Of a DNA stretch of 58,988 nucleotides, positions 38,605 to 58,329 are shown piece by piece; positions within the stretch are counted from its first letter, which is position 1, and each line of letters opens with the position of its first letter. The DNA comes from Steroidobacteraceae bacterium (lineage in GTDB: Bacteria; Pseudomonadota; Gammaproteobacteria; Steroidobacterales; Steroidobacteraceae), in the NCBI GenBank assembly GCA_018059685.1, contig JAGOXN010000001.1:1-58988 (forward strand). The letters are read 5' to 3'. The position numbers and the translations under genes were made by a program. Below the pieces are notes generated by a model. The model did not search any database, was not told the DNA's origin, and saw only the letters and a program-made list of their open reading frames with translations.

Positions 38605-39630
38605 TCAGGGTGGCGGCGACGGGGCCAGCGACTGGACCGGCAGGGAATCGGTCGCGCCCGGAGTCACCGGCGCGACCGAGACGGCAATGTCGCGGACCGT
38701 ATCCGGCGGAACCTCTCCGACCGCCGTCACGACGTGCCCCTGGATACTGGTCGAGAACGCATTGGCGGAACCGACGCTGGTTGCCTCCGGTGGCGCCGGC
38801 CCGGCGGCCGGTCCAGGCTCGATGAACACCGACACCGAGGCGAAACCATCCGAGAAAATGAGGTGCTGGACGGGCATCGGAACGCCGGGCATGCGCTGGA
38901 TGCGGCTGCCGACCAGGCGGAATCCGGGCGGCATCTTCATGGGTCGCCAGGCGGCGGCCGTCGCGGCCGCGGCCGAGGTGGCCGGCTGCCGGCCCGTCCG
39001 CACCCACTGGAAGCCGGTGGCGTCCACCGACGCCTCCGTGGCGCTCGCAGCGATGCGCTCGGGCATTTCGAGGCGGGTGAAATGGATGGCTTCCACCACC
39101 CTGCCGGTACCGTCCGCAACGACCGAGCGCAGCGGCATGGCCGTCTCGGCATCGAGCCACAACCGGTAGCCATAGCGGAACTGATCGCGCGGCCGGATGT
39201 CGAGGACCTGGACGTCGCGGCCGAGGATGCGGCTGCCCGGGCTCACGCTCAGGTCATACAGAGCGTCGAGCTGGGCCGACGGAGCCGGGAAGGCCTTGAT
39301 CAGCGAGCCCCGGTCCGTGCGCGGCTCCACGAGCACGACCTTGCGATCGGGCAGGTAGACATGGACCTCGTTCGCCGTGCGCACGATCTCGCGTCCGCTC
39401 CCATCCAGCGAGACGAGCCGCTCGTGTGTCTCGGCCCCGTCCACGCGGTGCACGATCCGCATGGTCTCGGACTGGCCGTTCGTCGTGTGCGTAAAGAGTC
39501 CGTAGTAGTTGCGGGTGCCGAGCGCCTCGCCCATGCGCCCGAGCCACGCGCGCGCGTCCTCCTCCGCGGCGTGGGCCGGCATGACGATCGCCGCCAGAAA
39601 CGCAGCCGCGAGCAGCACCGCTGGCCGCAT
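38605..39630 (-). CDS. rseB: Sigma-E regulatory protein RseB/MucB
   Basis: Signal peptide and an LolA-like N-terminal domain (AWL.RM..A....NY.G.F). Position between rseA and rseC. Confidence 0.88.
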   Translation of the reverse strand: MRPAVLLAAAFLAAIVMPAHAAEEDARAWLGRMGEALGTRNYYGLFTHTTNGQSETMRIVHRVDGAETHERLVSLDGSGREIVRTANEVHVYLPDRKVVLVEPRTDRGSLIKAFPAPSAQLDALYDLSVSPGSRILGRDVQVLDIRPRDQFRYGYRLWLDAETAMPLRSVVADGTGRVVEAIHFTRLEMPERIAASATEASVDATGFQWVRTGRQPATSAAAATAAAWRPMKMPPGFRLVGSRIQRMPGVPMPVQHLIFSDGFASVSVFIEPGPAAGPAPPEATSVGSANAFSTSIQGHVVTAVGEVPPDTVRDIAVSVAPVTPGATDSLPVQSLAPSPPP

Positions 39631-40206
39631 TCAGGGCCGCTCCAGCGCATCGTAGGCGACGCGGGCGATACCCGGATCGGCTGCCAGCACGCCGGACCAG
39701 ACGTTGCGGCGCCCGATCGGGCCCGCGAACTGGCTGTGCGCCACGAGATATCCCGCGAGGCGCTGGCTCTGCGCCGGAGTGGGGCTCGCCCCGCCGTAGC
39801 TCGACAGGGCCGCGACTGCCCGGACGGGTGCCGTATCGACCGTGGCGACGGCGACCTCGTCGCCGAGCTGGGGCCGGACGAGCAGCACGGCCACGAGGGC
39901 CGCGCTCGCCGCCACGGCGGCCGCGACGGTCGGGCGGGACCAGCGGTGATCCCGGGATGACTGCGCAACCGCGGCCGCGGCCTCGTCCGGGGCGGCCGAG
40001 ATGGCCGCGCTGACGCGTGCTGCAAAGCCCGGGCTGGCCGTGACGCCGCCCGGTGCCTGCAGCGCCTCACCGGCGAGCACGTAGCTGGAAAACGCGCGCT
40101 GCAGCTCGGTGTCGCGCTCCATTCGGCGTACCAGCAGGCCGATCTCCCCCGCCGGGAGTTCTCCATCCAGGAAGGCGGACACCTGTTCGCGGATCTGGTC
40201 TGTCAT
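39631..40206 (-). CDS. rseA: Anti-sigma-E factor RseA/MucA
   Basis: N-terminus MTDQIREQVSAFLDGEL (RseA_N), a central transmembrane helix and a periplasmic C-domain. Confidence 0.88.
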   Translation of the reverse strand: MTDQIREQVSAFLDGELPAGEIGLLVRRMERDTELQRAFSSYVLAGEALQAPGGVTASPGFAARVSAAISAAPDEAAAAVAQSSRDHRWSRPTVAAAVAASAALVAVLLVRPQLGDEVAVATVDTAPVRAVAALSSYGGASPTPAQSQRLAGYLVAHSQFAGPIGRRNVWSGVLAADPGIARVAYDALERP

Positions 40207-40215
40207 GGTTGCAAC

Positions 40216-40872
40216 TCAGTCGAGCAGTGGTTTCAGGCTGCGGTCAATCGCCTCGCGGGCGCGGAAGATGCGGGAGCGCACCGTGCCCACCGGGCAGTCC
40301 ATCGCTTCCGCGATCTCCTCGTAGCTCAAGCCCTCGACCTCGCGCAGGATGATCGCCGTGCGGAGGTCCTCGGGCAGCTGCTCCACCGCATGATTCACCG
40401 TGCGATGGATCTCGTCCGACAGGGCCGCGGCCTCCGGCGTGTCGCCGTGGCGCATGCGCGACTCCACCGCCGCCTGCTCCGACTCGTTCAGGTCGGCCTC
40501 GTAATCGAGCGGCCGGCGCTGGCGGGACGCCATGCTGTTGCGCGCGGTGTTCACTGCAATCCGGTACAGCCAGGTATAGAACGCGCTGTCTCCGCGGAAC
40601 GATCCAAGCGCCCGGTAAGCCTTGACGAAGGCGTCCTGGGCGACGTCCTCGGCCTCGGTCGGGTCACGCAACAGACGCGCCACGAGCTTCACGACCCTGT
40701 GCTGATACCTGAGCACCAGCAGGTCGAACGCACCGCGCTCGCCCCGCTGCGCCCGCCTCACGAGTTCGAGATCGGTCTGCTCGACGCCAGAGCCCTGCCG
40801 CGCATCCTCGTCCCGGGACTCGTGCGACCGGATAGACCCATCCGAGGGGGGAAAGTTCGCCATCGGCTTCAT
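40216..40872 (-). CDS. rpoE: Envelope-stress ECF sigma factor RpoE/AlgU
   Basis: Near-identical blocks to E. coli RpoE (FRGDSAFYTWLYRIAVNTA, CPVGTVRSRIFRAREAID). Starts at the ATG at 40872 (overlapping the upstream stop) or the ATG at 40863. There is a roughly 27-aa N-terminal extension relative to E. coli RpoE. Confidence 0.93.
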   Translation of the reverse strand: MKPMANFPPSDGSIRSHESRDEDARQGSGVEQTDLELVRRAQRGERGAFDLLVLRYQHRVVKLVARLLRDPTEAEDVAQDAFVKAYRALGSFRGDSAFYTWLYRIAVNTARNSMASRQRRPLDYEADLNESEQAAVESRMRHGDTPEAAALSDEIHRTVNHAVEQLPEDLRTAIILREVEGLSYEEIAEAMDCPVGTVRSRIFRAREAIDRSLKPLLD

Positions 40873-41315
40873 GGCTCGGTCGGAACCTGGGGCCGCGGCG
40901 CCCGGTCCGCGTGACGCAGTGCGCGGAGCCGGACCGCAAGCCGGCGCAGGTCGGCGTCCGGCAGGTCCCAAGGCGTCAGCCAGACCGCGCGGCCGCCGCG
41001 GGCCATCGTCCAGCGCAGGACCACGGACCGGCCGAGCAGCCGGCTTCCCGGGCCGAGTCGCGCGGCCGCACGGCGGCCGTCCCGGAACTGCAATTGCCAG
41101 CGGCCGTCGTCCTCCAGGCTCGCCGTGCAGAGCAGCCGGCCGGGTCGCGTCCGCATCCAGTGCCACGCGAGCAGGCAGCCCAGCGTGACGACGCCCATGC
41201 CGGGCGGCAGCGCCGGGTGGCGCGCGGCGACGACTTCCACGACCACACCGCTCGCAAGCACGAGGACCCGGGTGAGCCAGTCCGTCGCGAGTCGGGGTGG
41301 CAGTTCAAGGGTCAT
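40869..41315 (-). CDS. ygfX: YgfX/CptA-family inner-membrane protein (DUF1434)
   Basis: Trimmed to the ATG at 41315. Two N-terminal hydrophobic helices, then a DGRWQL...VLRW...VWL..D......RRL pattern like E. coli YgfX. It lies directly after sdhE, as in E. coli. The family call is from memory. Confidence 0.6.
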   Translation of the reverse strand: MTLELPPRLATDWLTRVLVLASGVVVEVVAARHPALPPGMGVVTLGCLLAWHWMRTRPGRLLCTASLEDDGRWQLQFRDGRRAAARLGPGSRLLGRSVVLRWTMARGGRAVWLTPWDLPDADLRRLAVRLRALRHADRAPRPQVPTEP

Positions 41316-42365: not shown

Positions 42366-44150
42366 TCAGTACGTCCGCGCCCGGGGTGGAATCGATTCCA
42401 CGTCGTCCGTCAGCGTGTCGAGATGCACCGGCCGGTAATCGATCCGGACGCGGCCCCGCTCGTCCACCCACGCCAGGGTGTGCTTGAGCCACTGCTGGTC
42501 ATCGCGGTCCTTGTAGTCCTCCCGCGCGTGCGCGCCCCGGCTCTCCTTGCGGTTCTCGGCGCCGTGCATCGTCGCCACCGCCTGGCCGAGCAGGTTCTCG
42601 AGTTCCAGCGTCTCGATGAGATCGGTGTTCCAGATGAGCGACCGGTCGGTCACCCGGACGTCGGCGAAGGTGTCGTGGACCGCACCGATCTTCCGTACGC
42701 CCTCCCCGAGAGACTCGCCGGTGCGGAAGACGGCGGCGTGGTTCTGCATGACGCGCTGCATGTCGAGGCGGATCTCGGCCGTGCTGCGGCCGCCTTTCGC
42801 GTGGCGCAGGCGATCGAGGCGGCTCACGGCGAGCTCGCCCGCATCCTTCGGCAGCGGCGCCTGCGCCGCTCCCGCGCGGGTGGTCGACGCGCAGTGCCGC
42901 GCGGCCTCCCGCCCGAACACCACCAGGTCGAGCAGGGAGTTCGACCCCAGCCGGTTCGCGCCATGGACCGAGACGCAGGCCGCTTCGCCGACGGCCATCA
43001 GGCCCGGAACCACCGCGTCGGGATTGCCGTCGCGCAGCGTGACGACCTCGCCATGCACGTTGCAGGGAATCCCGCCCATGTTGTAGTGCACGGTCGGCAG
43101 GACGGGAATCGGCTCACGGTTCACGTCCACGCCGGCGAAGATGCGCGCCGTCTCGGCGATGCCCGGCAGACGCTCATGGATCACATCCGGCCCGAGGTGC
43201 TCGAGGTGGAGGTGAATGTGGTCCTTGTGCGGGCCGACGCCGCGGCCCTCGCGAATCTCGATCGTCATCGAGCGGCTCACCACGTCGCGCGAGGCGAGGT
43301 CCTTGGCGTTCGGCGCGTAGCGTTCCATGAAGCGTTCGCCGGCCGAGTTCGTCAGGTACCCGCCTTCGCCGCGCACGCCTTCCGTGATCAGGCAGCCCGC
43401 ACCATAGATGCCCGTGGGATGGAACTGGACGAACTCCATGTCCTGCAGCGGGAGGCCCGCGCGCAGCACCATGCCGCCGCCGTCCCCCGTGCACGTATGT
43501 GCCGAGGTGCAGGAGAAGAACGCCCGGCCATAGCCGCCCGTGGCGAGGATCACCTGCTGGGCACGGAACCGATGCAGTTGTCCGCTCGCCATGTCGAGCG
43601 CGACGACGCCCCGGCAGGCGCCGTCTTCCATGATGAGGTCGATGGCGAAAAACTCGATGAAGAAGCGGGCCTCGTGCTTGAGCGACTGCTGGTAGAGCGT
43701 GTGCAGCATCGCGTGCCCGGTGCGGTCGGCCGCCGCGCAGGTGCGCTGCGCGATGCCCTTGCCATAGTGCGTGGTCATGCCGCCGAACGGGCGCTGGTAG
43801 ATGCGGCCGTCCTCGGTGCGCGAGAACGGCACGCCGTAATGCTCGAGCTCGATCACCGCCGCGGGCGCTTCCTTGCACATGAACTCGATGGCGTCCTGGT
43901 CCCCGAGCCAGTCCGAGCCCTTGATGGTGTCGTAGAAGTGGAAGCGCCAGTCGTCCTCGCCCATGTTGCCGAGCGCGGCGCTGATGCCGCCCTGCGCCGC
44001 GACGGTGTGACTGCGCGTCGGAAAGACCTTGGTCAGGCAGGCAGTGCTGAGACCCGCCTGCGCGAGCCCGAAGGTCGCGCGCAGCCCCGCGCCGCCCGCG
44101 CCCACGACCACGACGTCGCAGGTGTGATCCGTCATCGTGTACGCGCTCAT
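42366..44150 (-). CDS. sdhA: Succinate dehydrogenase flavoprotein subunit
   Basis: The ATG at 44150 overlaps the sdhD stop (ATGA). Contains [23 protein letters not shown] (FAD-His) and HGANRLG. Confidence 0.96.
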
Positions 44151-44533
44151 GCGGTCGCTCCGAACACAATCCACATCACGGCGAGCACGCCCACCGCGGC
44201 CGCGACGACGAGCACGAACTGGACCGCCAGCACCGCGGCGATTCGCGCCCCCCTGTTCCCGACGTAGTCCTCGAGGATGACCTGCAGGCCGAGCGCCGCG
44301 TGACGCGCCGCCGTCAGGACGAACAGCACCGCGAGTATTGCCTGCGCGGGTGAACGCAACCAGGCGGTGACCGACTCGTGACTCAGGTCGCGCCGCGTCA
44401 CGAGCGCCGACACGAACCATGCGCCGAGCAGCACGAGCGCGACCGCCGTGACACGCTGCGACTGCCAGTGACCGGCCCCGTACTTCGCCGACCCCTGGCC
44501 GAGCACTCGACCGAGCGGGCTGCGCAGGCTCAT
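44147..44533 (-). CDS. sdhD: Succinate dehydrogenase hydrophobic membrane anchor subunit
   Basis: Three transmembrane helices with a heme-ligand His context. Position between sdhC and sdhA; the start overlaps the sdhC stop. Confidence 0.88.
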
Positions 44534-44925
44534 GCGCCACCCCCTGCCACGCTGCGCAGCAGAAGCCAGGTGAGGACGCCGAGGACGACGGAGGTGATCG
44601 CCACGGTCCAGCCACTGGCGCGGGCGGTCGACTTCTCGAACCCGCGGCCCGTGTCCCAGAACAGGTGCCGGATACCGTTCAACAGGTGATAACAGAACGC
44701 GATCGATACACCGAGCCAGGCGACCTGCGCGAGCGGCGAGCCGAGGACCACGGACGCGCGGGCGTATGAACCAGGCCCGGACGCGATCGCCGCGAGCCAG
44801 TAGACGAGCAGGAAGAATGCGACGCAGAGCAGCACGCCCGTGATCCGGTGCAGGATCGACAGGGTGTTCGTGTACAGCCAGCGGTACTGCGTGAACGGGG
44901 ACAGCGGCCGTTCAGGTTCAGCCAT
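44530..44925 (-). CDS. sdhC: Succinate dehydrogenase cytochrome b556 subunit
   Basis: RPLSP....Y.......SILHRITG is the canonical SdhC N-terminus. Confidence 0.9.
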
Positions 44926-47608: not shown

Positions 47609-48704
47609 TCAGAGGCCCTGCTTCAGGCTGCCCTCGAGAAACGGGTCGAGATCCCCGTCGAGCACCGCGCCCGTATTGCCCACCTCGACGCCGGTGCGCA
47701 GGTCCTTGATCCGCGACTGGTCGAGCACGTAGGAGCGGATCTGGTTGCCCCAGCTCACGTCCGACTTCGCGTCCTCGAGCACCTTGGCTGCCGCGTTGCG
47801 CTTGTTGACCTCGAGCTCATAGAGCTTCGCCTTCAGCATCTTCATCGCCGTCGACCGGTTCTTGTGCTGGCTGCGCTCGCTCTGGCACGCGACCACGATG
47901 CCGCTCGGCAGGTGGCGGATGCGCACCGCCGACTCGGTCTTGTTCACGTGCTGGCCGCCCGCCCCGCTCGATCGGTAGACGTCCATCTCGAGGTCCGCCG
48001 GGTTCACCTCGATGCTGATGTCGTCGTCCACCTCCGGCGAGACGAATACGGACGCGAACGACGTGTGCCTGCGTGCGTTCGAGTCGAACGGCGACTTGCG
48101 CACCAGCCGATGCACGCCGGTCTCGGTCCGGAGCCAGCCGTAGGCGTACTCGCCCTCGATGCGGATCGACGCGCTCTTGATGCCGGCGACCTCGCCATCG
48201 CTGCTGTCCGTGACCTCGGTCGCGAAGCCGTGCTTGTCCGCCCAGCGCAGGTACATGCGCAGCAGCATCTGCGCCCAGTCCTGCGCCTCGGTCCCGCCGG
48301 CACCGGCCTGGATGTCGAGGAAGCAGTTGTGCGAATCCATCTCGCCCGGGAACATGCGCTTGAACTCGAGGCGCGCGACTTCGTCCGCGATGCGCCCGAC
48401 GTCCTTCTCGACGGCGGCGACGGTGCCCTGATCGCCCTCGCCCTCGGCGAGTTCGAGCAGTTCGCTGGCCTCGCTCAGTCCGGCCTGCAGCCTGTCCAGC
48501 GTCCCGACGACCGTCTCGAGCCGTGTGCGCTCGCGGCCGAGTTCCTGCGCACGGTCGGGATTGCTCCAGACGGTCGGATCCTCGAGTTCGCGGAGCACCT
48601 CGGCGAGCCGCTCGCTGCGACTGTCGTAGTCAAAGGTACCCCCTGAGCGCGCGGGTGCGCTGCGCGAGGTCATCGAGATTGCGGCGGACCGGATTGATTT
48701 CCAT
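47609..48704 (-). CDS. prfB: Peptide chain release factor 2, requires programmed +1 frameshift (frame 0: 48704..48633; frame +1: 48631..47609)
   Basis: Frame 0 reads [24 protein letters not shown] followed by an in-frame TGA. The +1 frame continues DYDSRSERL... through SPF and GGQ ([12 protein letters not shown]). Confidence 0.93.
48629..48644 (-). promoter_or_regulatory. prfB +1 ribosomal frameshift site
   Basis: The minus strand reads AGG GGG TAC CTT TGA C. This is an internal Shine-Dalgarno-like AGGGGG, then the slippery CUU-UGA-C, identical in logic to E. coli prfB. Confidence 0.9.
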
Positions 48705-48740
48705 GCGTGCCGGGGAGTAGCGGGAAGCGAGCCGGGCAGT

Positions 48741-50483
48741 CTAGCACGACGCAGGCACCAGCCATTCGGCGACGAGCTGCAGGCGGGGCGCGCCGGAGTA
48801 CTCGTCGACCTCGGTCCGGTAGACGAGATCGAGCGCATCGCCGGCCCGTACGACCGGCGCTGCCGTATCGTCCAGGTGGCGAAACGCGATGGCGTCGACC
48901 ATCTCGCCCGAGCCGGCGCGCAGGCGCATCTTCAGGTGCCGTTCGCCGACGATGCGCGCGGCGGCCACTCCGAAGCGCCCGTCGAACGACGGTTCCGCGA
49001 AGCCGGAACCCCAGGGGCCACCTTCGCGCAGCGCGGCGGCCGTATCCACGCTGAATTCCCCGGCCTCGAGCGGCCCGTCGGTGAACAGGTCGCCGGAGAG
49101 CAGCTCGTCGCCGGCAATGAGCCCGACCTCCTCGGCGAATGCCCGGCGGAAGTCCTCGAAGCGCGACGCCGCGATCGTCATGCCGGCCGCCATGGCGTGT
49201 CCGCCGAATTTCTCGAGCAGGCCGGGATGGCGCGTCGCCAGGGAATCCAGCACGTCGCGCACGTGCAGTCCGGGCACCGAGCGCGCCGAGCCCTTGAGCC
49301 AACCCGGCTCGCCGGGCGCGAACGCGATCACCGGCCGGTGCAGCCGCTCCTTGACCCGCGACGCCACGAGCCCGACCACGCCCTGATGCCAGCCGGAATC
49401 GAAGAGACACAGGCCCGCGGGTACCTCGCCCTCGGGCAGGTTCGCCAGCGCGTCGACCTGCGCAAGCGCCTCCTGCTGCATCTTCGACTCGAGCGCGCGA
49501 CGCTCCAGGTTGATCTGCGACAGGCGTTCCGCCAGCGATCGGGCCTCGCGTCCGTCCTCCGCGAGCAGGCACTCGATTCCGAGCGACATGTCCTCGAGGC
49601 GGCCGGCGGCATTGAGCCGCGGCCCGGCCTGGAAGCCGAGATCCTGCGCGACGGCGTTTTCCAGACGGCGACCCGACACCTCGAGCAGCGCGCGCAGGCC
49701 CGGCACGCAACGGCCGGCGCGGATGCGGCGCAGTCCCTGGGCGACCAGGACCCGGTTGTTGGTGTCGAGCGGCACCACGTCGGCGATGGTGCCGAGCGCG
49801 ACGAGGTCGAGCAGGTCCGCTGGGTTGCACGCCGCATCGGCGGTTACGAGTCCCGACTCGCGCATGCGGCGCGTCAGCGCAGCCATGAGGTAGAAGGCGA
49901 CGCCGACCCCGGCGAGTGATTTCGACGCGAAGCGCTCCCCGGCCAGGTTGGGGTTCACGATGGCCGCGGCGTCGGGAAGGCTCGCACCCGGCAGGTGATG
50001 ATCCGTCACCAGGACCTCGGTGCCGAGGCGCCGGGCCTCTGCCACGCCCTCGAGTGACGAGATGCCATTGTCGACCGTGACGATCAGGCCTGGCCGTCGT
50101 CGGGCGGCCACCTGCACGATCCCGGGTGTCAGTCCGTAGCCGAACCTGAAGCGGTCCGGAACCAGGTACGAGGGCGCCGCAAATCCCAGCCGCCGGAGCT
50201 GGCGGACGACCAGCGCCGTGCTCGTCGCCCCGTCGGCATCGAAGTCGCCGACGACCAGCACCTGGTCGCCCCTGCGCCGACAGGCCAGCAGCAGATCGAC
50301 GGCCGCGTCGAGACCGCCGAGCGTGCCGACCGGCAGCAGGCGCTCGAGGCTCAGGTCGAGGTCACCGTCGCCCGCGAGCCCGCGCGCGCCGTAGACCCTG
50401 CGCAGCACCGGGTGCAGGCTCGCCGGCAGCGACGCCTGCCGGCCGGCGTCCGCCGGACGCCTGCGGATGCGGCGTTGAATCAA
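48741..50483 (-). CDS. recJ: Single-stranded-DNA-specific exonuclease RecJ
   Basis: DHH motifs ([17 protein letters not shown]) and a DHHA1 GGH motif. The TTG at 50483 overlaps the upstream stop (TTGA) and gives (M)IQRRIRRRP..., which aligns with the E. coli RecJ N-terminus. The ATG at 50528 is an alternative. Confidence 0.9.
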
Positions 50484-51541
50484 GGCAGCCGTTCCGCGAG
50501 CGGGCGACGGCGGCGCCAGATGCGCCAACGATCGCCACGCACGACCCGCAGCGCATGACCACCGAGCAGCAGGTCCACCTGGTCCACGCGACCGCTCGCC
50601 AGCGCGTCACGGGCAGGCCTGAAACACGCGAACTCGACTTCTTCGAGCGCCTGCGCCGTGGGCTCCGGTCGCGCGGGATGGGCCCACCCCATGGCCACGG
50701 TGCCGCCCGCGGTCTCGAGCGCCTGCGCGAGCGCCGGTGGCCCACTGCAGGGCGCACCGTGCAGGCGGGCAAGTCCCTGCAGCCACGCGTCGTCGCTGAA
50801 CAACCGGGGCAGCGCGGTCGTCGCCTCGCCGACGCGACCGAAACCCCACAGCCACAGCGAGTTGACCGTTACCTGGCCGCGCGCAACGCGACGTTCATTC
50901 ACCGGGTGCTCGTGCAGCAGCATCTGGACCTCGTTCATCAGTCGGCACACTTCGGGACCGTCGCGTCCGGCCGGCATCACGTCGCGCAGGTTACTGCCTG
51001 CCGCGGCCGAGGGCTCGACACTCGTGCACTGCACCTCCCTCGCGCTCGACCACAGCCAGCCGCCGTGGAGATCGCCCACAAACGCGTGGTCCACCGCGGA
51101 GAAATGCTCCTGCAGTGTCGCGCCGATCGCTTCGGCCTCCTCCGGGTCGAGCTCGACTACGCCCGGTGGCGCGATCCGCAGGTGCTCGATCGCGGCCAGC
51201 AGGTGCACCGGCGTCGCACACGCCCAGGTGCCGGCCGGCATTTCGTTCGTCCGCGCGGCACGCACGCACGGGCCGGCTGGAAAGCGTTCGAGGATCCCGT
51301 CGCCCTGCCCGGCGTCGTCGAGCAACCACGGACGCCATCCCGTGCGCGGCGCCGGAACCGATCTGCCGCGCGCGACGAGCCATTCGGCCGCCGCGAGGCG
51401 CCGATCCCGCACGTTCAGGACCATAGTGCGGGTGAACCACGGGATCGCGAGCCTCAGACAGCGCGAGAGCCCTTGGCATCCGGCGCCGTGCGGCGCGTTG
51501 CCGGGATGATCAGTCATGACCGGATCGTCCGCATGCAACAT
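50480..51541 (-). CDS. Conserved hypothetical protein, probably RpfE-type (the family often mis-annotated as phosphoglycerate mutase)
   Basis: Host-like codon bias. A C-terminal-half block, LLHEHPVNERRVARGQVTVNSLWLWGFG, resembles the RpfE-type family found next to recJ-prfB-lysS in Xanthomonas and betaproteobacteria. This is recalled from memory, not searched. The start is uncertain (51541, 51517 or 51424). Confidence 0.55.
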   Translation of the reverse strand: MLHADDPVMTDHPGNAPHGAGCQGLSRCLRLAIPWFTRTMVLNVRDRRLAAAEWLVARGRSVPAPRTGWRPWLLDDAGQGDGILERFPAGPCVRAARTNEMPAGTWACATPVHLLAAIEHLRIAPPGVVELDPEEAEAIGATLQEHFSAVDHAFVGDLHGGWLWSSAREVQCTSVEPSAAAGSNLRDVMPAGRDGPEVCRLMNEVQMLLHEHPVNERRVARGQVTVNSLWLWGFGRVGEATTALPRLFSDDAWLQGLARLHGAPCSGPPALAQALETAGGTVAMGWAHPARPEPTAQALEEVEFACFRPARDALASGRVDQVDLLLGGHALRVVRGDRWRIWRRRRPLAERLP

Positions 51542-51688
51542 GGTAAGCCCATGAGGTTGAATGTCGACCGGCGGGACACGCTGCCCTCGTACCTGCGCGC
51601 GCGCTGCTTCTTATCGGCACGTGCGTGAACATCGAATCCGCGGCGGCAGTCGATGCGCAGGTCGCTCCAGGGCCCGTCGGCGAAGCTC

Positions 51689-54600
51689 TCAGCGCCAGTC
51701 ACCGGCGGCGATGTACCCGGCCCAGTAGAAGGGATGCGTGCTCTCGCCGCGCGACCGGCGTCGCCGCAGGATTTCAGCGCCCGCGGCGTTCACCGCTTCG
51801 ATCGTCGATTCCCCCCCGATGAAGCGATGCCGGTACAGCGCCCCCATCCACTGGCGCGTCGCATCGTCGTCCACGGCCCAGAGACTCAGGACCAGCGTTC
51901 GTGCTCCCGCCAGCTCGAACGCGCGTTTCAATCCGAACACGCCCTCGCCCGCGCGCAGGCTGCCCAGGCCCGTGTCGCACGCTGAAAGCACGGCCCACTC
52001 GGTGCCTCGCAGGTCCAGTACGGCAATTTCCTGCGCAGTCAGGATTCCGTCATTCTCTTCGTAGGCCGCGTCGTCGCGGCGGTTGGCCCCGGCCAATGCG
52101 AGACCCGAAAGCAGCAGCGGGTTCTCGCGCGTGATCTGATCGAACGACGGTTGTCGCGAACCCTGGGTCCCCGCCTCGCCCGAACCGCATTCATCGCCGA
52201 GGAAGAACCCGTGCGTTGCAATGTGAACCACGCGATGCCCCGATGCCATCGACTTGAAGTCGGCCTCACTGGCGGCCGATCCGGACAGCGAGACCGCACC
52301 GGGCCCGCTCTCCCGGCCACCCTGCGTCGACGCCCGGTCCCAGTGCTGGACGATCTGCTGTATCTCCAGGGTCGAGCCTGGCAATGGTTCGAACCGCATC
52401 GCGGCGAATGTGCCGCAGGAGAACGGGGCGCCGCGGGCCGCGCGGCTCATGCGCTCCGTCACGCCGCCCGCGGCGGCGGCTTTACGGGTCGCACGCCGCG
52501 AGACTGACGGCAGATGGTCGAACGCAGGCGCGCCGAAGACCAGCAGCCCGCCGCCGGAACGTGCCGGCGCCTTCATGATCACGTCACGTTCCGCGGACAG
52601 GTAGTGCAACCGGCGGCGGGTGTCCGCAAGGTAACCACCGTCGGCTGCCGGAAGGGCCGCGAAGCTCACGAGATTCAAGGTTCCGTCCGGGACGATGAAT
52701 ACCTCCGCGGCGTCTCCAATTGCCGGCACGAGCCGGTCCCAGACCGAGCGGCGCAGTTGCTCGGCGACCCGGCGGTACGATGACTCGCCGGCACTCGAAG
52801 CCCGGCCGGCCGACTGCGCCTCGCTCGCGATGGCCGCACGCCAGCGCGCGACCATGGCATCGACCACCGTGGCATCCCCAAGTCGGAACGCCTGGGGCAT
52901 CGCCCGGGCCGCGGGCAGCACGAAAGCCATGTACTCCGGAGACGACTTGCCCACGGGCGGTGGCGGCTCACCGGGACGCGTCGCCAGTTCGACGTAGTCA
53001 TAACGCACGAAAGCCACCAGGGCCGATCCAGGCGGCAGCGACTCGCTCACCTGCTGCAGTCCCGACTGAGTCGACACCATCGTGTCGCGCAGCGTTTCGG
53101 TACGCGCCGCCAGCGACAGCTCGGCTTGCCTCAAGCCGATCCGTGCCGAGTCCAGCTCCTGCCTAAAGACCGCGTTCCCGCCCGTGCCCGGCCCGCGCAC
53201 CGTGAGTTTCGCGAGTCGATCGGTCGCGGTCTGCAGTTCACGGACGAGGTTCGCGAGGTCCCGGTCCTGCGCCTTGAGGAGCAGTTGTCGCCGCTCGATC
53301 AGACCGTCGAGAACCTGACCGCGTGCCCGGATCGCACTGTCCCACGCGGCAGCCACGAACTCATTGCGTTGCGGAATTGCAGCAGCGGCCGACAGCAGCT
53401 GGTCGACCGGATACCGCAGGCCGGCGGCAGCCGCCAACGCCTGTTCCTCGGGGGACACTCTGGCACTCAGGCGCAGGTGCTCGCGGAGAATCGCATCGGC
53501 CTTCTGCAGGGTGTCCCGTGCCGCGTCATAGTGCTGCATCGCGAAGTGGACACGAGCGATGTCCGCGAGATACACCGCGTTGTCGGGATGCGCCGGCCCC
53601 AGCACGCGCTGGTGGATCTCGAACCCGCGCTGCATGTATTCAAGGGCCATGCGAGGCTCGCCGAGCCCGAGACTCGACCGGCCCAGATCGCCCAGGACGT
53701 AGGCGACAGGTGTAGACGGCACATCGTCGGCTTCGAGCGCCTGATACACCTCGAGTGCACGCAGGCTGTAGGATCGGGCCGCTGGGTAGTTGCCTGCGTC
53801 GTAGTAGTGGTCGCCGAGGCTTCGCAGTGCATTGCCCACCGGGTAACCGTGCCCCCCGCTGTTTCTGTCGACGATCGCCAGGCTGCGCAACAGGAGCGGC
53901 TCGGCCTCTGAGAAGCGCCCGAGGTTCGTGAGGCTGACGCCGAGGTGTCGGAGCGCGCGTCCCAATTGCGGCTGCCACGGATCGAAAGTGCGCTCGAGAA
54001 TGGCGACGGCTCGCGCTTCCAGTTCCGCGGCCGCAGCGAAGTCACCCATGTCGTTGCGGACGATACCGAGCGCAAGCGTGTCCTCGGCCGCCTGCAGGCA
54101 ATCCTCGCCGAGCTCCCTCCGGACGATGGCCAGGCTGCGCTCGAAGTGCCAGACGGCCTTCGACCAGTTCGCGCTCGCGAGATACGAGTAGCCAAAGGCA
54201 TTCAGCGCGCCGGTCGTCATGATGCTTTCGGATCCGTAGGCAGTCTCGAGAATGGTCAGACCTTCGTCGAGACGGGCGCGCGCCTCCTCTCGCTGCGAGT
54301 CCGTGTAGGAAAGAGTCATGCCGAGCAACACCAGCGCAGGGCCGACACGTGGATGAGCCGAGCCGAGCGCGTGTCGATAGATCTGCACCGCCTGCTCCAG
54401 ATGCGATGCGCCTTCGTCTGCCTGTCCAGCCTCGGCCAGGGACACACCCAGCAACTCCAGCGCCTCCGCCACGGCGAGATCCGATGCGCCGAGGCGGCCT
54501 GTGCGAATGTCACGCGCCTGCACCGCCCAACGCACTGCGTCATCGGATTGGTACGTCGCCCGGGACAGGTATCCGAGAGCGAGCTGCACCGTCGCCAGGT

Positions 54601-55081
54601 CGGCCGGATCCGGCTCACGCATGGATTCGAGCAGGTGCAGGGAGCGCTGCAGACTCGCGGTCGCGGCGGAATGGTCGCCGCGAACCGTGAGCACGCGGCC
54701 GAGTCGTGCCAGGCTGCGCACCATCTCGGGACTCGATGCGCCGAAGTTGCGCTCGTTCAGCTGGACGGCACGCCGGGCCCAGACGAGCGCGTCCGGCCGG
54801 GCACCGCGCCGCCCATCGAGCAGGGACTGCACGAGAAGGTTGGCGATGTGCGCCGCCTCCGGCGAAATCTCCGCCCCGTTCCCGGTCAACCTCGCGAGCT
54901 CCTGACCGGCACGTTGCTCGGCCTCGGCGTAGCGCCCCTGGTAAAGCCGCTCCTCGATCTCGCTGGACGCCAGCGTCCGCGGCGCAGGCGTGGTTGCCGC
55001 GTGCAGACACGATCCCGCCAGCGCCAGCAAGCCGGCCGTAACGCTTGCGGCAGTCGTTGCCCACCACGTCCGTCGGGACAT
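51689..55081 (-). CDS. Exported TPR-repeat / CHAT-domain (caspase-like) protease, 1130 aa
   Basis: Signal peptide MSRRTWWATTAASVTAGLLALAGSCLHA. A long run of TPR-like repeats follows. The C-terminal CHAT domain has VVHIATHG (His codon 52211..52213), LSACDTG (Cys codon 51977..51979), GL.RAF..AGA..LV.SLW.V.D and HPFYWAGYI..GDW. Confidence 0.88.
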   Translation of the reverse strand: MSRRTWWATTAASVTAGLLALAGSCLHAATTPAPRTLASSEIEERLYQGRYAEAEQRAGQELARLTGNGAEISPEAAHIANLLVQSLLDGRRGARPDALVWARRAVQLNERNFGASSPEMVRSLARLGRVLTVRGDHSAATASLQRSLHLLESMREPDPADLATVQLALGYLSRATYQSDDAVRWAVQARDIRTGRLGASDLAVAEALELLGVSLAEAGQADEGASHLEQAVQIYRHALGSAHPRVGPALVLLGMTLSYTDSQREEARARLDEGLTILETAYGSESIMTTGALNAFGYSYLASANWSKAVWHFERSLAIVRRELGEDCLQAAEDTLALGIVRNDMGDFAAAAELEARAVAILERTFDPWQPQLGRALRHLGVSLTNLGRFSEAEPLLLRSLAIVDRNSGGHGYPVGNALRSLGDHYYDAGNYPAARSYSLRALEVYQALEADDVPSTPVAYVLGDLGRSSLGLGEPRMALEYMQRGFEIHQRVLGPAHPDNAVYLADIARVHFAMQHYDAARDTLQKADAILREHLRLSARVSPEEQALAAAAGLRYPVDQLLSAAAAIPQRNEFVAAAWDSAIRARGQVLDGLIERRQLLLKAQDRDLANLVRELQTATDRLAKLTVRGPGTGGNAVFRQELDSARIGLRQAELSLAARTETLRDTMVSTQSGLQQVSESLPPGSALVAFVRYDYVELATRPGEPPPPVGKSSPEYMAFVLPAARAMPQAFRLGDATVVDAMVARWRAAIASEAQSAGRASSAGESSYRRVAEQLRRSVWDRLVPAIGDAAEVFIVPDGTLNLVSFAALPAADGGYLADTRRRLHYLSAERDVIMKAPARSGGGLLVFGAPAFDHLPSVSRRATRKAAAAGGVTERMSRAARGAPFSCGTFAAMRFEPLPGSTLEIQQIVQHWDRASTQGGRESGPGAVSLSGSAASEADFKSMASGHRVVHIATHGFFLGDECGSGEAGTQGSRQPSFDQITRENPLLLSGLALAGANRRDDAAYEENDGILTAQEIAVLDLRGTEWAVLSACDTGLGSLRAGEGVFGLKRAFELAGARTLVLSLWAVDDDATRQWMGALYRHRFIGGESTIEAVNAAGAEILRRRRSRGESTHPFYWAGYIAAGDWR

Positions 55082-55102
55082 GTCTTCCCAGGGAGCGCCG
55101 CC

Positions 55103-55882
55103 TCAACCGTCGGCGTCGACGCCCTCCAGCTCCTGCAGGATCATCCTAGCATCGTCTTGCAGCGCCCCCTGCATCTTCACGACGAGGACCAGTTCCTGCC
55201 GCGCGCCCCGCAGGTTTCCCTGCGCCAGGTAGGCCTTGGCGAGGTAGAAGCGCGCTTCCTCCAGGAATGGCGTGTCGCCCAAGGCGATGGTCCGCCCGAA
55301 CTCCTGAACGGCCGCGGTGACCTGGCCCGCGAGCAGTTCGGACGCCGCGTGGAAGAACGCAAAATCGGCCCGTGCAGAATCGAGAGCTGCCGCCGTGCGC
55401 AAGCGCGGCGCGGCCGCGGCAAACTCGCGCGCCTGATAATGCACCATGCCCTCGTGGAACGCGGCAGTCGCATCGTCGGCGACCCCGCGCAGGACGACCG
55501 GCGAGTATTCCGGCGGCTCCACCTGCGCCAGGCGCGCGAGCAGTTGTGCGCGGGCGGGGGCCCCCGGCCGCCAGGCGGCGGATGGCGCCAGCAGCCAGGC
55601 GGCCACCAGGGAGGCTGCGATCGCCGCAACGGCCAACGCTCCCCACGACCACCCGCGATGCCCCGGCCCCGGCTGCCGCCGCGTCAACTTCGGCTCTGCA
55701 CGGGACCCGAGGGCCGCCTGGATCGCCTCCAGTTGCCGCAGCTCACCGAAACACCGCTCGCACTCGAAGTAGTGCAGTTCGTAGGTTTCCCGTTCGACGG
55801 AGTCCAGCTCGCCGAGCAGGTACCTCTCGGCGAGACCGTCGGCCAATACGCTGTCGCACTTTCCGCCCATCAGCCTCTCCAT
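55103..55882 (-). CDS. Anti-sigma factor (zf-HC2 N-terminus, one transmembrane helix, periplasmic TPR-like domain)
   Basis: HxxxCxxC motif HYFECERC (55751..55774), transmembrane segment WSWGALAVAAIAASLVAAWLL, and a helical-repeat C-terminal domain. The start is the ATG at 55882, or the one at 55870 that overlaps the sigma gene stop. Confidence 0.8.
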   Translation of the reverse strand: MERLMGGKCDSVLADGLAERYLLGELDSVERETYELHYFECERCFGELRQLEAIQAALGSRAEPKLTRRQPGPGHRGWSWGALAVAAIAASLVAAWLLAPSAAWRPGAPARAQLLARLAQVEPPEYSPVVLRGVADDATAAFHEGMVHYQAREFAAAAPRLRTAAALDSARADFAFFHAASELLAGQVTAAVQEFGRTIALGDTPFLEEARFYLAKAYLAQGNLRGARQELVLVVKMQGALQDDARMILQELEGVDADG

Positions 55883-56541
55883 AGTGGCCGGCGGGAAGCA
55901 TTTCGTGACACCCGGCCGAGCTCGTCCCTGAGCCGTTTCAGCGCCCGGCTCTTCTGCTGCCGGACCACCTCCGAAGAGACGCCGAGTCGGGCCGCCATCT
56001 CGCCGGGTTTCAAGCCCTCCGCCAGACTGAGGACCAGCACCTGCCGTTCCTGCGCGGTCAGGCCGCCAAGACACCGGCCGATCAGCTGCAGGTCGCTGTC
56101 GCGCTCCAGGCTGTCGGCATGATCGATGGTGACGAGCGACTCGTCGATCGGATCCATCTGCGGTCGGCGAGCTCGACTGCGCGCATGGTTGTTGATCATG
56201 TTGACGGCCGTACCGTGCACGAATGCCCCGAGCCTCTGGGTATCGAGCACACTGCCGCGACGCAGGGCCTGGATCACTGCCCACACGACGTCGACGGCCA
56301 GTTCCCGGGCCGCTTCGCGATCCTTGAGTCGCGCGACCCCCATCGCGAACACCCGGCCGGAAAAACGCACGTAGAGATCCTTCTCGGCCGCGCGATCGCC
56401 CAGCCGGACTCGCTCGGCCAGGGCCGCCCCGTCCTCACCTGCCTCCGTCCGGTCCTCGGATTCCATCCAGGGCATCTCGTGCCAGTCCATCACCTGCCAG
56501 GACGGCCCGTCACGCGCCCGGCTGTTCGTCTGCAGAGGCAA
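55870..56541 (-). CDS. ECF-type RNA polymerase sigma-70 family factor
   Basis: Region 2 (DLYVRFSGRVFAMGVARL...ELAVDVVW) and region 4 HTH (LTAQERQVLVLSLAEGLKPGEMAARLGVSSEVVRQQKSRALKRLR). The start is uncertain; internal ATGs occur at 56490, 56475 and 56466. Confidence 0.85.
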   Translation of the reverse strand: MPLQTNSRARDGPSWQVMDWHEMPWMESEDRTEAGEDGAALAERVRLGDRAAEKDLYVRFSGRVFAMGVARLKDREAARELAVDVVWAVIQALRRGSVLDTQRLGAFVHGTAVNMINNHARSRARRPQMDPIDESLVTIDHADSLERDSDLQLIGRCLGGLTAQERQVLVLSLAEGLKPGEMAARLGVSSEVVRQQKSRALKRLRDELGRVSRNASRRPLWRG

Positions 56542-56780
56542 TCTACTACGTCCACGCGCCCGATCACATGGTCACCGTGCGTTCGTTGAACTACGACCGA
56601 TTCCTGTTCTTGGCGCATTGCAGACGACCCGGGCGGGGCTCCCGTCACGATTCACCTCGTGGCGACCACTATCCATACGGGTCGAGGCGGCAAATGGTCG
56701 GGCACGTCGCAGGAGGTAGAGCGGCGACCGCCAACTGCTTCGAGAGTCGATCAATAGCAGTCGTCGCAAGGGGAGACACC

Positions 56781-57320
56781 ATGAGGTTCCAACGATTCCG
56801 ACAATTCGCTGCCGTCCTGCTGTTCGCCTGTTTGACGTCGAGTCCGGCACTTGCGCATGGCAGCAGGCATGGGAACGTGCCGATTTATGCAACGTTCGGA
56901 TTTCAGTGGACCCCGATGAATTACTTCGGGGGGATAGAAGATGACGACCCAAATTCCGATCCAACTAAAAGGGTGACCGAGACCCAGGGCGCTGCCAGAC
57001 TGCACAACGGCAAGGTCGTTGCCTTTGTGACGAGAGATGAGCTCGACATCGTCCAAGGTCACATCACCTCGGACTACGCGATCCTGATGTTCTCACCGGA
57101 AGACTGGGTCTACACGAAGTACGACCATATTCAGGCAGGCTATGACCCCGTGACCAATACGGCGTCGTTCGGTGGCCCGTTGACCGTGACGGGCGGCGAA
57201 GGCCGTTTCGCGGGCGCCACCGGCAATCTGACGATTCGTTCCAAGGTGCTGTTCTGGCCCATGCCTTCGGTCGGCGTATTCGAGATCAAGGGCGTCATCA
57301 AGACCCAGCAGCCCGACTGA
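56781..57320 (+). CDS. Secreted hypothetical protein (179 aa), atypical composition
   Basis: ATG preceded by GGGGAGA. Signal peptide MRFQRFRQFAAVLLFACLTSSPALA. Many A/T-ending codons, unlike neighbouring genes. The C-terminal G-G-E-G-R-F-A-G-A-T-G motif is reminiscent of small beta-barrel (dirigent/allene-oxide-cyclase-like) proteins, but that link is weak. Confidence 0.65.
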   Translation: MRFQRFRQFAAVLLFACLTSSPALAHGSRHGNVPIYATFGFQWTPMNYFGGIEDDDPNSDPTKRVTETQGAARLHNGKVVAFVTRDELDIVQGHITSDYAILMFSPEDWVYTKYDHIQAGYDPVTNTASFGGPLTVTGGEGRFAGATGNLTIRSKVLFWPMPSVGVFEIKGVIKTQQPD

Positions 57321-57471
57321 AACGGCCGGTGGCATGGCGAGTCGCGCGGATCTCTGGGTCGAAGGTGCGCGACGAGCGGACTGAGCGCGCGTCGATCGCG
57401 GGCCGATGATGCCCGCGGTCCTCGCGCCGAGCCGTCATGACCGGACTCTCGCCATCCAGTATCGTAGCCGC

Positions 57472-57861
57472 ATGAGGCTCGATATCGATCGACCCGATGC
57501 CCTGCATTTCATCCGTGCGTACGAGCCAGGCTTGATCCGCATCGGCACGCGGGAGTTGGCCGCTAGCGTCGTCGTCACCGCGACCTCGCTCATCGAGGAC
57601 TGGCGGCCGCGCCACATGTCCGACCTGCGGGCGTCCGACCTCGAGCCGGTGCTCGCGCTTCGACCGGAGGTGCTGCTGCTCGGTTCCGGCACGCGCCAGC
57701 TCTTCCCCGAGCCGAGCCTGCTCGCGACTCTGTATGCGGCGCGCATCGGTTTCGAGATCATGGACACCGGGGCCGCCTGCCGCACCTACAACGTGCTCGT
57801 GGCGGAGGGCCGCAACGTAGCCGCCGCGCTGATCGTCGAGCGCGCCACGTTGACGGGCTGA
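57472..57861 (+). CDS. Mth938-like (DUF498, NDUFAF3-like) domain protein
   Basis: Trimmed to the ATG at 57472 (MRLDIDRPDA...). Pattern I..Y..G.I.I......S.I.......W....LLLLGSG........L......GI..E.M.T.AACRTYN.L..EGR.V.AAL. Confidence 0.75.
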   Translation: MRLDIDRPDALHFIRAYEPGLIRIGTRELAASVVVTATSLIEDWRPRHMSDLRASDLEPVLALRPEVLLLGSGTRQLFPEPSLLATLYAARIGFEIMDTGAACRTYNVLVAEGRNVAAALIVERATLTG

Positions 57862-57865
57862 GGCC

Positions 57866-57882
57866 ACTGCGCGCGGCGCAGT
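57866..57882. terminator. Perfect 7-bp stem / 3-nt loop hairpin between convergent genes
   Basis: ACTGCGC-GCG-GCGCAGT. There is no U-tract, so intrinsic terminator function is uncertain. Confidence 0.3.
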
Positions 57883-57915
57883 CGGGACGGCGCCTCGGGG
57901 CCATTCATCGAGGGA

Positions 57916-58329
57916 TCAGGTGAGTGCTGCGGAGTTCGCGGCGATCCACTCGGCGAGCTGGTCTTCGCCGAGGTCGCCGGCGGCCAGCTGCAGGAAGGTG
58001 CTGACGCACTGAGCATCGCCGGCGAGCAACTCGTAGCCATTCAACTCGAGGAACAACTCGGCGACCACCAGACTGGTGCGTTTGTTGCCATCGAGGAAGG
58101 GATGATTACGAGAAATGCCGAAGGCGTAGCTCGCCGCAAGACGTGTGATCGACTGCGCACCGTAGGCGAACTGGTGACGAGGTCGACCGAGTGCGGATTC
58201 CAGGAGTCCGTGATCGCGCACCCCCGGCTGACCGCCATGCTCGGCAAGCTGTTCGTCGTGAATGGCCAGTACGACGTCGAGTTCGACCCAGACCGGCTCG
58301 GTCACGAATCGCGACCTGCTACTTGGCAA
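57916..58329 (-). CDS. doc: Type II toxin, death-on-curing (Doc) / Fic family
   Basis: Doc-type Fic motif HPFLDGNKRT. The track start is the TTG at 58329. The GTG at 58305, giving (M)TEPVWVELDVVLAIHD, fits the Doc N-terminal length better. Confidence 0.88.
   Translation of the reverse strand: MPSSRSRFVTEPVWVELDVVLAIHDEQLAEHGGQPGVRDHGLLESALGRPRHQFAYGAQSITRLAASYAFGISRNHPFLDGNKRTSLVVAELFLELNGYELLAGDAQCVSTFLQLAAGDLGEDQLAEWIAANSAALT

Follow-up and report, generated by a model that had tools for sequence, protein, structure and literature searches.

Can a caspase-like protease that is delivered to the periplasm serve as the input of a sigma factor, by cutting the anti-sigma factor encoded beside it? 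The question is raised by three genes on the reverse strand of a 58,988-nucleotide stretch from a Steroidobacteraceae bacterium (GCA_018059685.1, contig JAGOXN010000001.1, positions 1 to 58,988; hereafter the window, G+C ~70%), which encode a sigma factor of the extracytoplasmic function (ECF) type, a membrane-spanning anti-sigma factor and an exported protein composed of tetratricopeptide repeats (TPR) and a C-terminal CHAT domain. Here we find the trio to be a unit that recurs across lineages, and the unfused, two-protein counterpart of the DdvA-DdvS system of Myxococcus xanthus rather than a categorically new system. In such an arrangement the TPR-CHAT protein may act in trans as the site-1 protease of its neighbour, a proposal that we weigh below against three others.

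Together the genes make up a single ECF signalling module that is laid out like an operon (Table 1). The TGA stop codon of the sigma gene overlaps the start of the anti-sigma gene by 13 nt if the latter begins at ATG 55882, or by 1 nt (TGATG) if it begins at ATG 55870, and 21 nt separate the anti-sigma stop from the CHAT gene. Judged by family alignment, the true sigma start is probably ATG 56466, and that of the anti-sigma is probably ATG 55870 (255 amino acids, aa), which matches public gene callers as well as the alignment of the family. No intrinsic terminator was found at the locus, and scanning the window for tRNAs and Rfam families gave no match.

By its profile matches, the first product is an ECF (group IV) sigma-70 factor built from regions sigma-2 and sigma-4 alone. 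It scores 61.8 bits against TIGR02937 (sigma70-ECF; cutoff 42.9), with residues 52-208 of the open reading frame (ORF) covered, and 44.1 bits against Sigma70_r4_2. Pfam Sigma70_r2 gave no match at E<=0.01, and since the TIGR02937 alignment spans region 2, this region has more probably diverged than been lost. None of the specific NCBIfam sigma models reached its own cutoff.

The second product reads as a single-pass anti-sigma factor of the zinc-containing (ZAS) type, predicted to bind both zinc and the sigma factor. Its translation contains HYFECERC, one transmembrane helix and a C-terminal TPR region. Among 162 family members, to which all conservation counts for this protein refer, C9 is kept in 150, and H37, C41 and C44 in 160 each; W78, just ahead of the membrane helix, is invariant in the alignment. 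Profile scores are low: zf-HC2 reached 17.3 bits, under its gathering score of 22.2, the Pfam TPR matches were sub-threshold, and the family profile reaches the ZAS domains of RslA, DdvA and RsrA weakly (E 2e-4 to 0.3). The AlphaFold2 (AF2) model, with a mean predicted local distance difference test (pLDDT) score of 82, shows ZAS helices at residues 8-59, the membrane helix, a segment at residues 119-136 that is non-helical yet confidently modelled, and a three-TPR domain (3-TPR), for which Foldseek returned CTPR3 and SycD/PcrH-type peptide-binding modules with TM-scores up to 0.9.

An exhaustive profile search recovered 638 representative clusters of this anti-sigma (built at 50% identity) at E<=1e-30, a figure that rises to 4900 when E<=1e-10 is allowed, and the top 150 representatives are all 178-338 aa long and of one common architecture. 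The tiny family of 16 clusters returned by a word-indexed search was a sensitivity artefact, exposed by the exhaustive hidden Markov model (HMM) search. Most orthologues carry a Pro/Ala-rich tether of 45-60 residues between the transmembrane helix and a conserved periplasmic motif (alignment columns ~120-190), which is missing from the anti-sigma of the window. Taken with the lipobox-like Cys of many CHAT partners, this tether raises the possibility of a trans-envelope contact in those lineages.

The third product matches CHAT over model positions 2-289 of 289 with 194.5 bits (E 3.5e-57), far above the cutoff of 24, as well as TPR_12 (160 bits), TPR_10 and TPR_NPHP3; by sequence, the repeat array resembles kinesin-light-chain and APPBP2. 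H957 and C1035, the putative catalytic dyad, are invariant across 21 homologues, and the dyad is kept in 23 of 23 trio-linked proteins with the catalytic region recovered. An apparent loss of the dyad in 10 trio-linked sequences was traced to truncated contigs and wrong ORF fragments. The N-terminus could represent a Sec, a lipoprotein or a Tat-like RR signal. Export-signal-like N-termini are present in every orthologue and trio-linked relative, with a lipobox-like Cys in some and an AxA site in others, and exported TPR-CHAT proteins are not rare, as nearly all homologues recovered have export signals.

The AF2 model of this protein (pLDDT 82, predicted TM-score 0.78) comprises a helix at residues 2-26, a disordered linker, the repeats and an alpha/beta CHAT domain, and as modelled it has the separase/craspase-type TPR-CHAT fold. 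Its top Foldseek matches are separase (4e-14), DdvA (8rot_A, 2.7e-13 over ~1150 columns) and Csx29 (8eey_B, 5.9e-12, target-normalised TM-score 0.56). PDB searches by sequence, be it with the entire protein, with the C-terminal half of it or with a profile of 21 sequences, yielded TPR matches only and no CHAT structure; kinship to DdvA, separase and Csx29 is visible at the fold level only. Collectively, what an earlier note on this DNA had read from the letters, namely three co-directional, tightly packed genes for an ECF sigma factor, a zinc-type single-pass anti-sigma with a periplasmic TPR domain, and a 1130-aa protein with signal peptide, TPR repeats and a CHAT domain, is borne out by the coordinates, the profile scores and the models, the CHAT threshold being passed by a wide margin.

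Does the trio recur? The following neighbourhood counts cover the 80 best loci per scan and are no census; they refer to ORFs called mechanically. In the five close orthologous loci (L001 and L083-L086, with CHAT proteins 50-58% identical), the order sigma (198-199 aa), anti-sigma (295-304 aa), TPR-CHAT is kept in all five. The flanks differ among these loci; only the trio is kept, plus a divergently encoded 179-aa protein in one sub-clade. A larger module with Kelch and PD40 propellers, which flank the trio in L001 and L084-L086, was considered and dismissed, as no part of the window encodes a homologue of the propellers.

In 33 of the 80 best TPR-CHAT loci from GTDB representatives, an ECF sigma gene lies within 6 kb. 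It is co-directional and ends less than 2 kb upstream in 15 of the 80, and at 2-6 kb in another 3. The space between sigma and CHAT is taken up by one single-pass membrane protein, 186-363 aa long, in 14 of the 15 loci (L042 was left out of this examination of gap proteins); in L057, from Verrucomicrobiia, the sigma gene is present and the gap holds a 152-aa ORF that lacks a transmembrane helix, with no recognisable transmembrane anti-sigma. The reverse scan started from the anti-sigma in 80 metagenomic loci, with the sigma gene scored in the 54 that had room for it and CHAT in the 27 with at least 3.3 kb of sequence: sigma lies upstream in 52 of 54, and a CHAT domain downstream in at least 21 of 27. 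Five of the six CHAT-negative loci carry an ORF of more than 800 aa one to three genes downstream, and the three that were scanned encode a TPR protein running off the contig.

Pairwise identities of sigma and CHAT proteins co-vary over 20 trio loci (Mantel r = 0.92, 0 of 2000 permutations), which is co-inheritance, with species phylogeny also contributing. Carriers of the split trio include a gammaproteobacterium, Acidobacteriota and Ignavibacteriales. Thus the neighbourhood mining for co-occurrence that the earlier note had called for gives the same answer from the CHAT and from the anti-sigma start: the trio is a conserved unit across lineages, not a product of chance. As a separate observation, four of the five loci with the large downstream ORF (L128, L142, L152 and L154, one sub-clade) carry an insertion that separates the anti-sigma from the large TPR gene. 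It comprises an ATPase gene, assigned to AAA_14/DUF4143 by Pfam in L142 and L152 and represented by an ORF of the same size in L128 and L154, together with an unannotated gene of ~300 aa.

The alignment also draws attention to one periplasmic stretch of the anti-sigma. Outside the zinc site, conservation is highest in L-A-R-V-x-P-P-x-Y-x-P-x-x-L-R-G, a non-helical stretch that follows the transmembrane helix by ~30 residues and borders the TPR domain on its N-terminal side. R132 is as conserved as H37, C41 and C44 (160 of 162), followed by P124 (154), Y126 (144), L131 (137) and G133 (134). In eight Acidobacteriota loci (L022, L025, L040, L041, L043, L047, L061 and L064) the position between sigma and TPR-CHAT is taken by a second class of anti-sigma, which has no zinc ligands but an N-terminal YLLGxLPxxExERLDELS, one transmembrane helix, a long tether that is coiled or of low complexity and a C-terminal domain rich in beta structure, and whose folded periplasmic part opens with an invariant L-x-P-x-x-R-G. 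Because Pro...Arg-Gly is common, at an equivalent boundary, to these two unrelated TPR-CHAT-linked periplasmic domains, it is the best candidate for a contact or cleavage site, and we consider PPxYxPxxLRG a candidate site for docking or cleavage by the CHAT protease. Separase cuts after Arg (PMC11506125).

The earlier note knew of no experimentally characterised example of such a system, a view that is outdated: DdvA-DdvS from M. xanthus has been solved by cryo-electron microscopy (2024; PDB 8ROT, 8RW5, 8RLZ), an ECF sigma with a ZAS anti-sigma that is fused to a periplasmic TPR-CHAT part, and the notion of CHAT as a site-1 protease is stated in that work (PMC11506125). The TPR-CHAT part of DdvA is a dimer in which either active site looks onto its partner's tether, 37-48 residues past the transmembrane helix, and DdvA without this part becomes a substrate of RseP. 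The active site of DdvA lacks a three-helix motif and would be completed across the dimer; for the site-1 step, its authors suggest that CHAT cuts its own polypeptide once a signal arrives (PMC11506125). The likeness to the trio extends to the sigma gene adjoining that of a single-pass anti-sigma whose N-terminus bears a Cys/His/Cys/Cys zinc domain, to the periplasmic TPR-CHAT part of separase/craspase fold with its His-Cys dyad, and to the proposed logic, in which CHAT is a signal-activated site-1 protease that acts ahead of RseP.

The two systems differ in that TPR-CHAT is part of the anti-sigma polypeptide in DdvA and would act, if it does, inside a dimer, whereas it is a separate exported protein here and the anti-sigma ends in a small 3-TPR domain; congruently, H-x3-C-x2-C is absent from the first 150 residues of 87 of 87 CHAT ORFs. 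There is moreover no detectable sequence similarity in the CHAT region, which is ~155 residues longer here, and CBASS, CRISPR or other defence genes were not seen near the trio, in contrast to the adjacent antiphage island controlled by DdvA; according to the DdvA authors, only a subset of DdvA-like pairs is found near such genes. A defence-island reading of our locus was likewise set aside, with nothing significant from PADLOC for the trio (zero matches for anti-sigma and CHAT, two marginal CARF-model matches for sigma, E ~1e-3), and no cas genes were seen in the annotated 40-59 kb of the window. Fused DdvA forms have been reported only in Myxococcota and one Comamonas, in a search by the authors that covered fused forms only (PMC11506125). 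In full-text searches that paired CHAT with ECF, with anti-sigma or with periplasm, we met only the work on DdvA, papers on CRISPR-associated CHAT proteases and a one-line remark on ECF54, and the unfused form is not described there; CHAT is not mentioned in the main text of the ECF classification either, where a listing in the supplement would still be possible (PMC7826278).

Other systems share single aspects with the trio. Csx29 is a cytoplasmic TPR-CHAT protein that cleaves Csx30, an inhibitor of the ECF-type CASP-sigma (PMC10028731), and so resembles the trio in fold and in the kind of target. This type III-E craspase is however cytoplasmic, RNA-activated via Cas7-11 and directed at a soluble inhibitor, in contrast to the predicted export, the membrane-bound ZAS anti-sigma and the absence of any CRISPR association seen here. 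RseA, DegS and RseP offer the precedent of a single-pass anti-sigma whose periplasmic domain needs clipping before site-2 cleavage, yet the site-1 protease of that sigma-E system is a PDZ serine protease, triggered by the C-termini of outer-membrane proteins and not encoded with the sigma. For ECF54 of Actinobacteria, CHAT proteins lie in the conserved neighbourhood and proteolytic control has been proposed from bioinformatics only (PMC8999054); this group differs by having no anti-sigma, and carboxypeptidase and subtilase genes in its context. Finally, an exported TPR-CHAT protein with 38% identity to that of the window (P0009) is encoded directly downstream of a CHASE2-guanylate cyclase gene (L002 5986-8004), with overlapping start, a case in which the output is a nucleotide cyclase and no sigma/anti-sigma pair is involved. 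This suggests that membrane signal transducers of different kinds have recruited TPR-CHAT as a periplasmic module that can be used repeatedly. The CHASE2/TPR-CHAT pair is flanked by ORFs of more than 2000 aa.

How, then, might the trio work? At rest, the cytoplasmic zinc domain of the anti-sigma would hold the sigma factor at the inner membrane, while its periplasmic part, with the short tether, PPxYxPxxLRG and the 3-TPR domain, would meet the exported TPR-CHAT protein. A periplasmic ligand, probably a protein, would bind the long TPR array and switch on His957/Cys1035. The active CHAT domain would then cut the anti-sigma, most plausibly at or beside Arg132-Gly133, and leave a stub of ~35 residues, similar in size to that of RseA after DegS cleavage. 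An RseP-type site-2 protease together with cytoplasmic proteases would clear the stub, and the liberated sigma factor would transcribe its own operon and a further regulon. As the same parts are present as in DdvA, on two polypeptides, the same logic would operate in trans. We infer the physical interaction, the cleavage and its site, the signal and the regulon, and assign the mechanism as a whole a rough probability of 0.45.

Several points weigh against this mechanism. Proteolysis of the anti-sigma is so far a proposal both for the trio family and for DdvA, and dyad mutants of DdvA had no phenotype in the conditions tested (PMC11506125). The ZAS domain of the trio is no closer to DdvA than to RslA, and the idea that the periplasmic domain of the anti-sigma is a literal split of the DdvA scaffold had to be abandoned, since Foldseek finds a generic 3-TPR only. 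The Arg motif could equally be purely structural, packing on the TPR domain as modelled (pLDDT 78-94), and an Arg cut in orthologues with the Pro/Ala linker would leave a much longer stub. Furthermore, gene order alone cannot tell a regulator from a target, as the authors of the ECF classification point out (PMC7826278).

The genes can also be read in other ways. TPR-CHAT may be a partner that does not cleave the anti-sigma but caps or co-senses it, as RseB does on RseA, with the protease aimed at itself or at the ligand, so that signal-induced release or self-destruction leaves the anti-sigma open to attack by RseP and general proteases. Each of the two partners contains TPRs, which are made for contacts between proteins, the conserved motif is modelled confidently and not as disordered, and the bulky TPR-CHAT part of DdvA demonstrably blocks RseP sterically (PMC11506125). 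Nevertheless, the invariant catalytic dyad argues for real proteolysis, and a near-invariant Arg in an extended segment is expected of a substrate site; overall we hold a non-cleaving role to be unlikely. Coincidence is a further explanation, that is a CHAT gene whose function has nothing to do with the sigma/anti-sigma pair. The phyla in question are rich in ECF sigma genes and the flanks of the trio are not conserved, but synteny is found in both directions over lineages at 25-60% identity, sigma genes are concentrated within 2 kb upstream and the components co-vary. These neighbourhood statistics effectively refute coincidence, which we regard as highly improbable.

TPR-CHAT could instead be output and not input, namely an ECF-induced effector protease, periplasmic or anchored to the outer membrane, that degrades foreign, damaged or signalling proteins, while the anti-sigma is inactivated otherwise, for example by oxidation of its zinc site or by another site-1 protease. 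ZAS domains can indeed answer redox stress (PMC11506125), and co-transcription would induce the protease along with the sigma. The variably linked exported proteins (Kelch and PD40 propellers and the 179-aa protein) look like regulon cargo, and exported TPR-CHAT proteins occur with no sigma gene nearby in 47 of the 80 GTDB loci, as well as beside the CHASE2-cyclase. On the other hand, the linkage from anti-sigma to CHAT is strict and holds over two unrelated anti-sigma architectures with a common Arg-Gly motif, and the DdvA fusion puts TPR-CHAT on the sensing side, inside the anti-sigma. A pure effector role therefore appears quite unlikely to us. Still, the two options of the earlier note, a site-1-protease analogue or an induced effector, both stay among the main candidates.

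Table 1. Features of the sigma/anti-sigma/TPR-CHAT locus and of the adjoining intergenic region, in window coordinates.
Feature	Position	Strand	Remarks
ECF sigma factor	55870..56466	-	198 aa; start from alignment to 198-199-aa orthologues
Sigma, mechanical ORF	55870..56541	-	reaches TTG at 56541
Anti-sigma factor	55103..55882	-	259 aa if begun at ATG 55882, 255 aa if begun at ATG 55870
Zinc-ligand set	55751..55858	-	C9 at 55856-55858; H37-x3-C41-x2-C44 at 55751-55774
Anti-sigma transmembrane helix	55574..55645	-	residues ~80-103; hydrophobic, kept in orthologues; AF2 helix 82-97
PPEYSPVVLRG motif	55484..55516	-	P123-G133 of the anti-sigma, periplasmic; family form PPxYxPxxLRG
Anti-sigma periplasmic 3-TPR domain	55109..55474	-	residues 137-258; AF2 pLDDT ~97
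Exported TPR-CHAT protein	51689..55081	-	1130 aa
Export signal (predicted)	54998..55081	-	residues ~1-28, MSRRTWW..LLALAGS-C25-LHA/A; direct reading, AF2 helix 2-26
TPR/helical-repeat array	53042..54973	-	residues 37-680; ~32 consecutive AF2 helices
CHAT domain	51698..52771	-	Pfam, residues 771-1128
Catalytic dyad (putative)	H957 52211-52213, C1035 51977-51979	-	contexts HIATHGF and LSACDTG
GAATCGTGACG (candidate promoter element)	56643..56653	-	version of GAAACGTGACA in the window, 2 mismatches; in the 314-nt region shared with the divergent gene
AGTAGATT	56540..56547	-	upstream of the sigma gene, close clade only: window, L001, L083, L085, L086; variant in L084; sole match in the window
Divergent exported protein	56781..57320	+	179 aa; signal-peptide-like N-terminus; mechanical ORF from 56568

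Upstream of the sigma genes of the family the motif GAAACGTGACA is strongly over-represented, with CGTGAC in 24 of 42 non-identical upstream regions, and its version in the window, GAATCGTGACG, is a candidate -35 element or operator of an autoregulated promoter. Across the window GAAACGTGACA is not enriched (7 matches against 9.7 expected). A 2-mismatch copy, GGAACGTGACG, inside the CHAT coding region (52582-52592, reverse strand) is within chance for the window. RGTAGAKT is restricted to the close clade, and its single match in the window is within chance expectation. Neither a convincing -10 element nor members of a regulon could be defined. The divergently encoded 179-aa protein has no Pfam, NCBIfam or PADLOC match; a 52%-identical homologue occupies the same divergent position in L083, and in other clades an exported Kelch propeller is found there. 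It is possible that the 179-aa protein is a member of the regulon or a partner of the trio.

The trio has recJ, prfB, lysS, a phosphoglycerate mutase-like gene, DUF498 and Fic as neighbours, and the gene order of the window runs nadB / rpoE ... lysS-prfB-recJ, in gammaproteobacterial style. The lysS product shares 84-85% identity with proteins from metagenome-assembled genomes named as Steroidobacteraceae. Between the CHAT gene and recJ lies an ORF of 353 aa (50480-51541, reverse strand) whose likeness to cofactor-independent phosphoglycerate mutase, as to a proposed homoserine kinase, is weak and partial (E 1e-10 to 1e-12) and falls far short of the cutoffs; a sigma-70-like promoter match is found near it at 51567-51540, and codon-position G+C marks the ORF at 50555-51628 on the other strand as probably spurious. 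Near the 5' end of prfB (47609-48838) is CTTTGAC (48629-48635, reverse strand), the classical programmed +1 frameshift site of release factor 2, with GAC in the frame of the long ORF. An RpoE equivalog sits beside nadB (40216-41166 and 42366-44615, both on the reverse strand; TIGR02939 286.6 bits, cutoff 236), and with this canonical rpoE ~15 kb from the trio the genome also holds the classical sigma-E system. The ORFs downstream of rpoE (e.g. 39300-40166) gave no Pfam match, in a scan that included no check aimed at RseA/MucA.

On the other side of the trio, a Fic/DOC family protein (57916-58329, reverse strand) has weak matches to PADLOC candidate systems (PDC-M59B, 2e-6), and G+C falls to 0.648 in 56000-58000. 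Orthologous trios are found near transposases and toxin-antitoxin genes (L001, L083 and L085). The side away from recJ may be accessory DNA.

Reading trio, second anti-sigma class and DdvA jointly, we tentatively propose that exported TPR-CHAT proteins would be widespread, trans-acting, ligand-gated caspase-like site-1 proteases of the periplasm, which start the regulated intramembrane proteolysis of dedicated anti-sigma factors by a cut after a conserved Arg (PPxYxPxxLR/G in the zinc/TPR class, LxPxxR/G in the second class). DdvA would then be a rare fused derivative of an ancestral two-protein design, and in some lineages the protease may be lipid-anchored and give a trans-envelope sensor. 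In this extended form the proposal is doubtful.

Whether periplasmic CHAT starts the destruction of the anti-sigma is the open question left by DdvA, and a hard one to address in a fused, dimeric membrane protein. The split system provides enzyme and substrate as two soluble, expressible pieces, with Arg132-Gly133 to mutate, and is thus directly testable in vitro. With hundreds of anti-sigma clusters at 50% identity, the module is also far commoner than the fused form. If the site-1 protease reading is true, caspase-like proteolysis would be a general way, so far overlooked, by which environmental bacteria feed signals into their ECF sigma factors.

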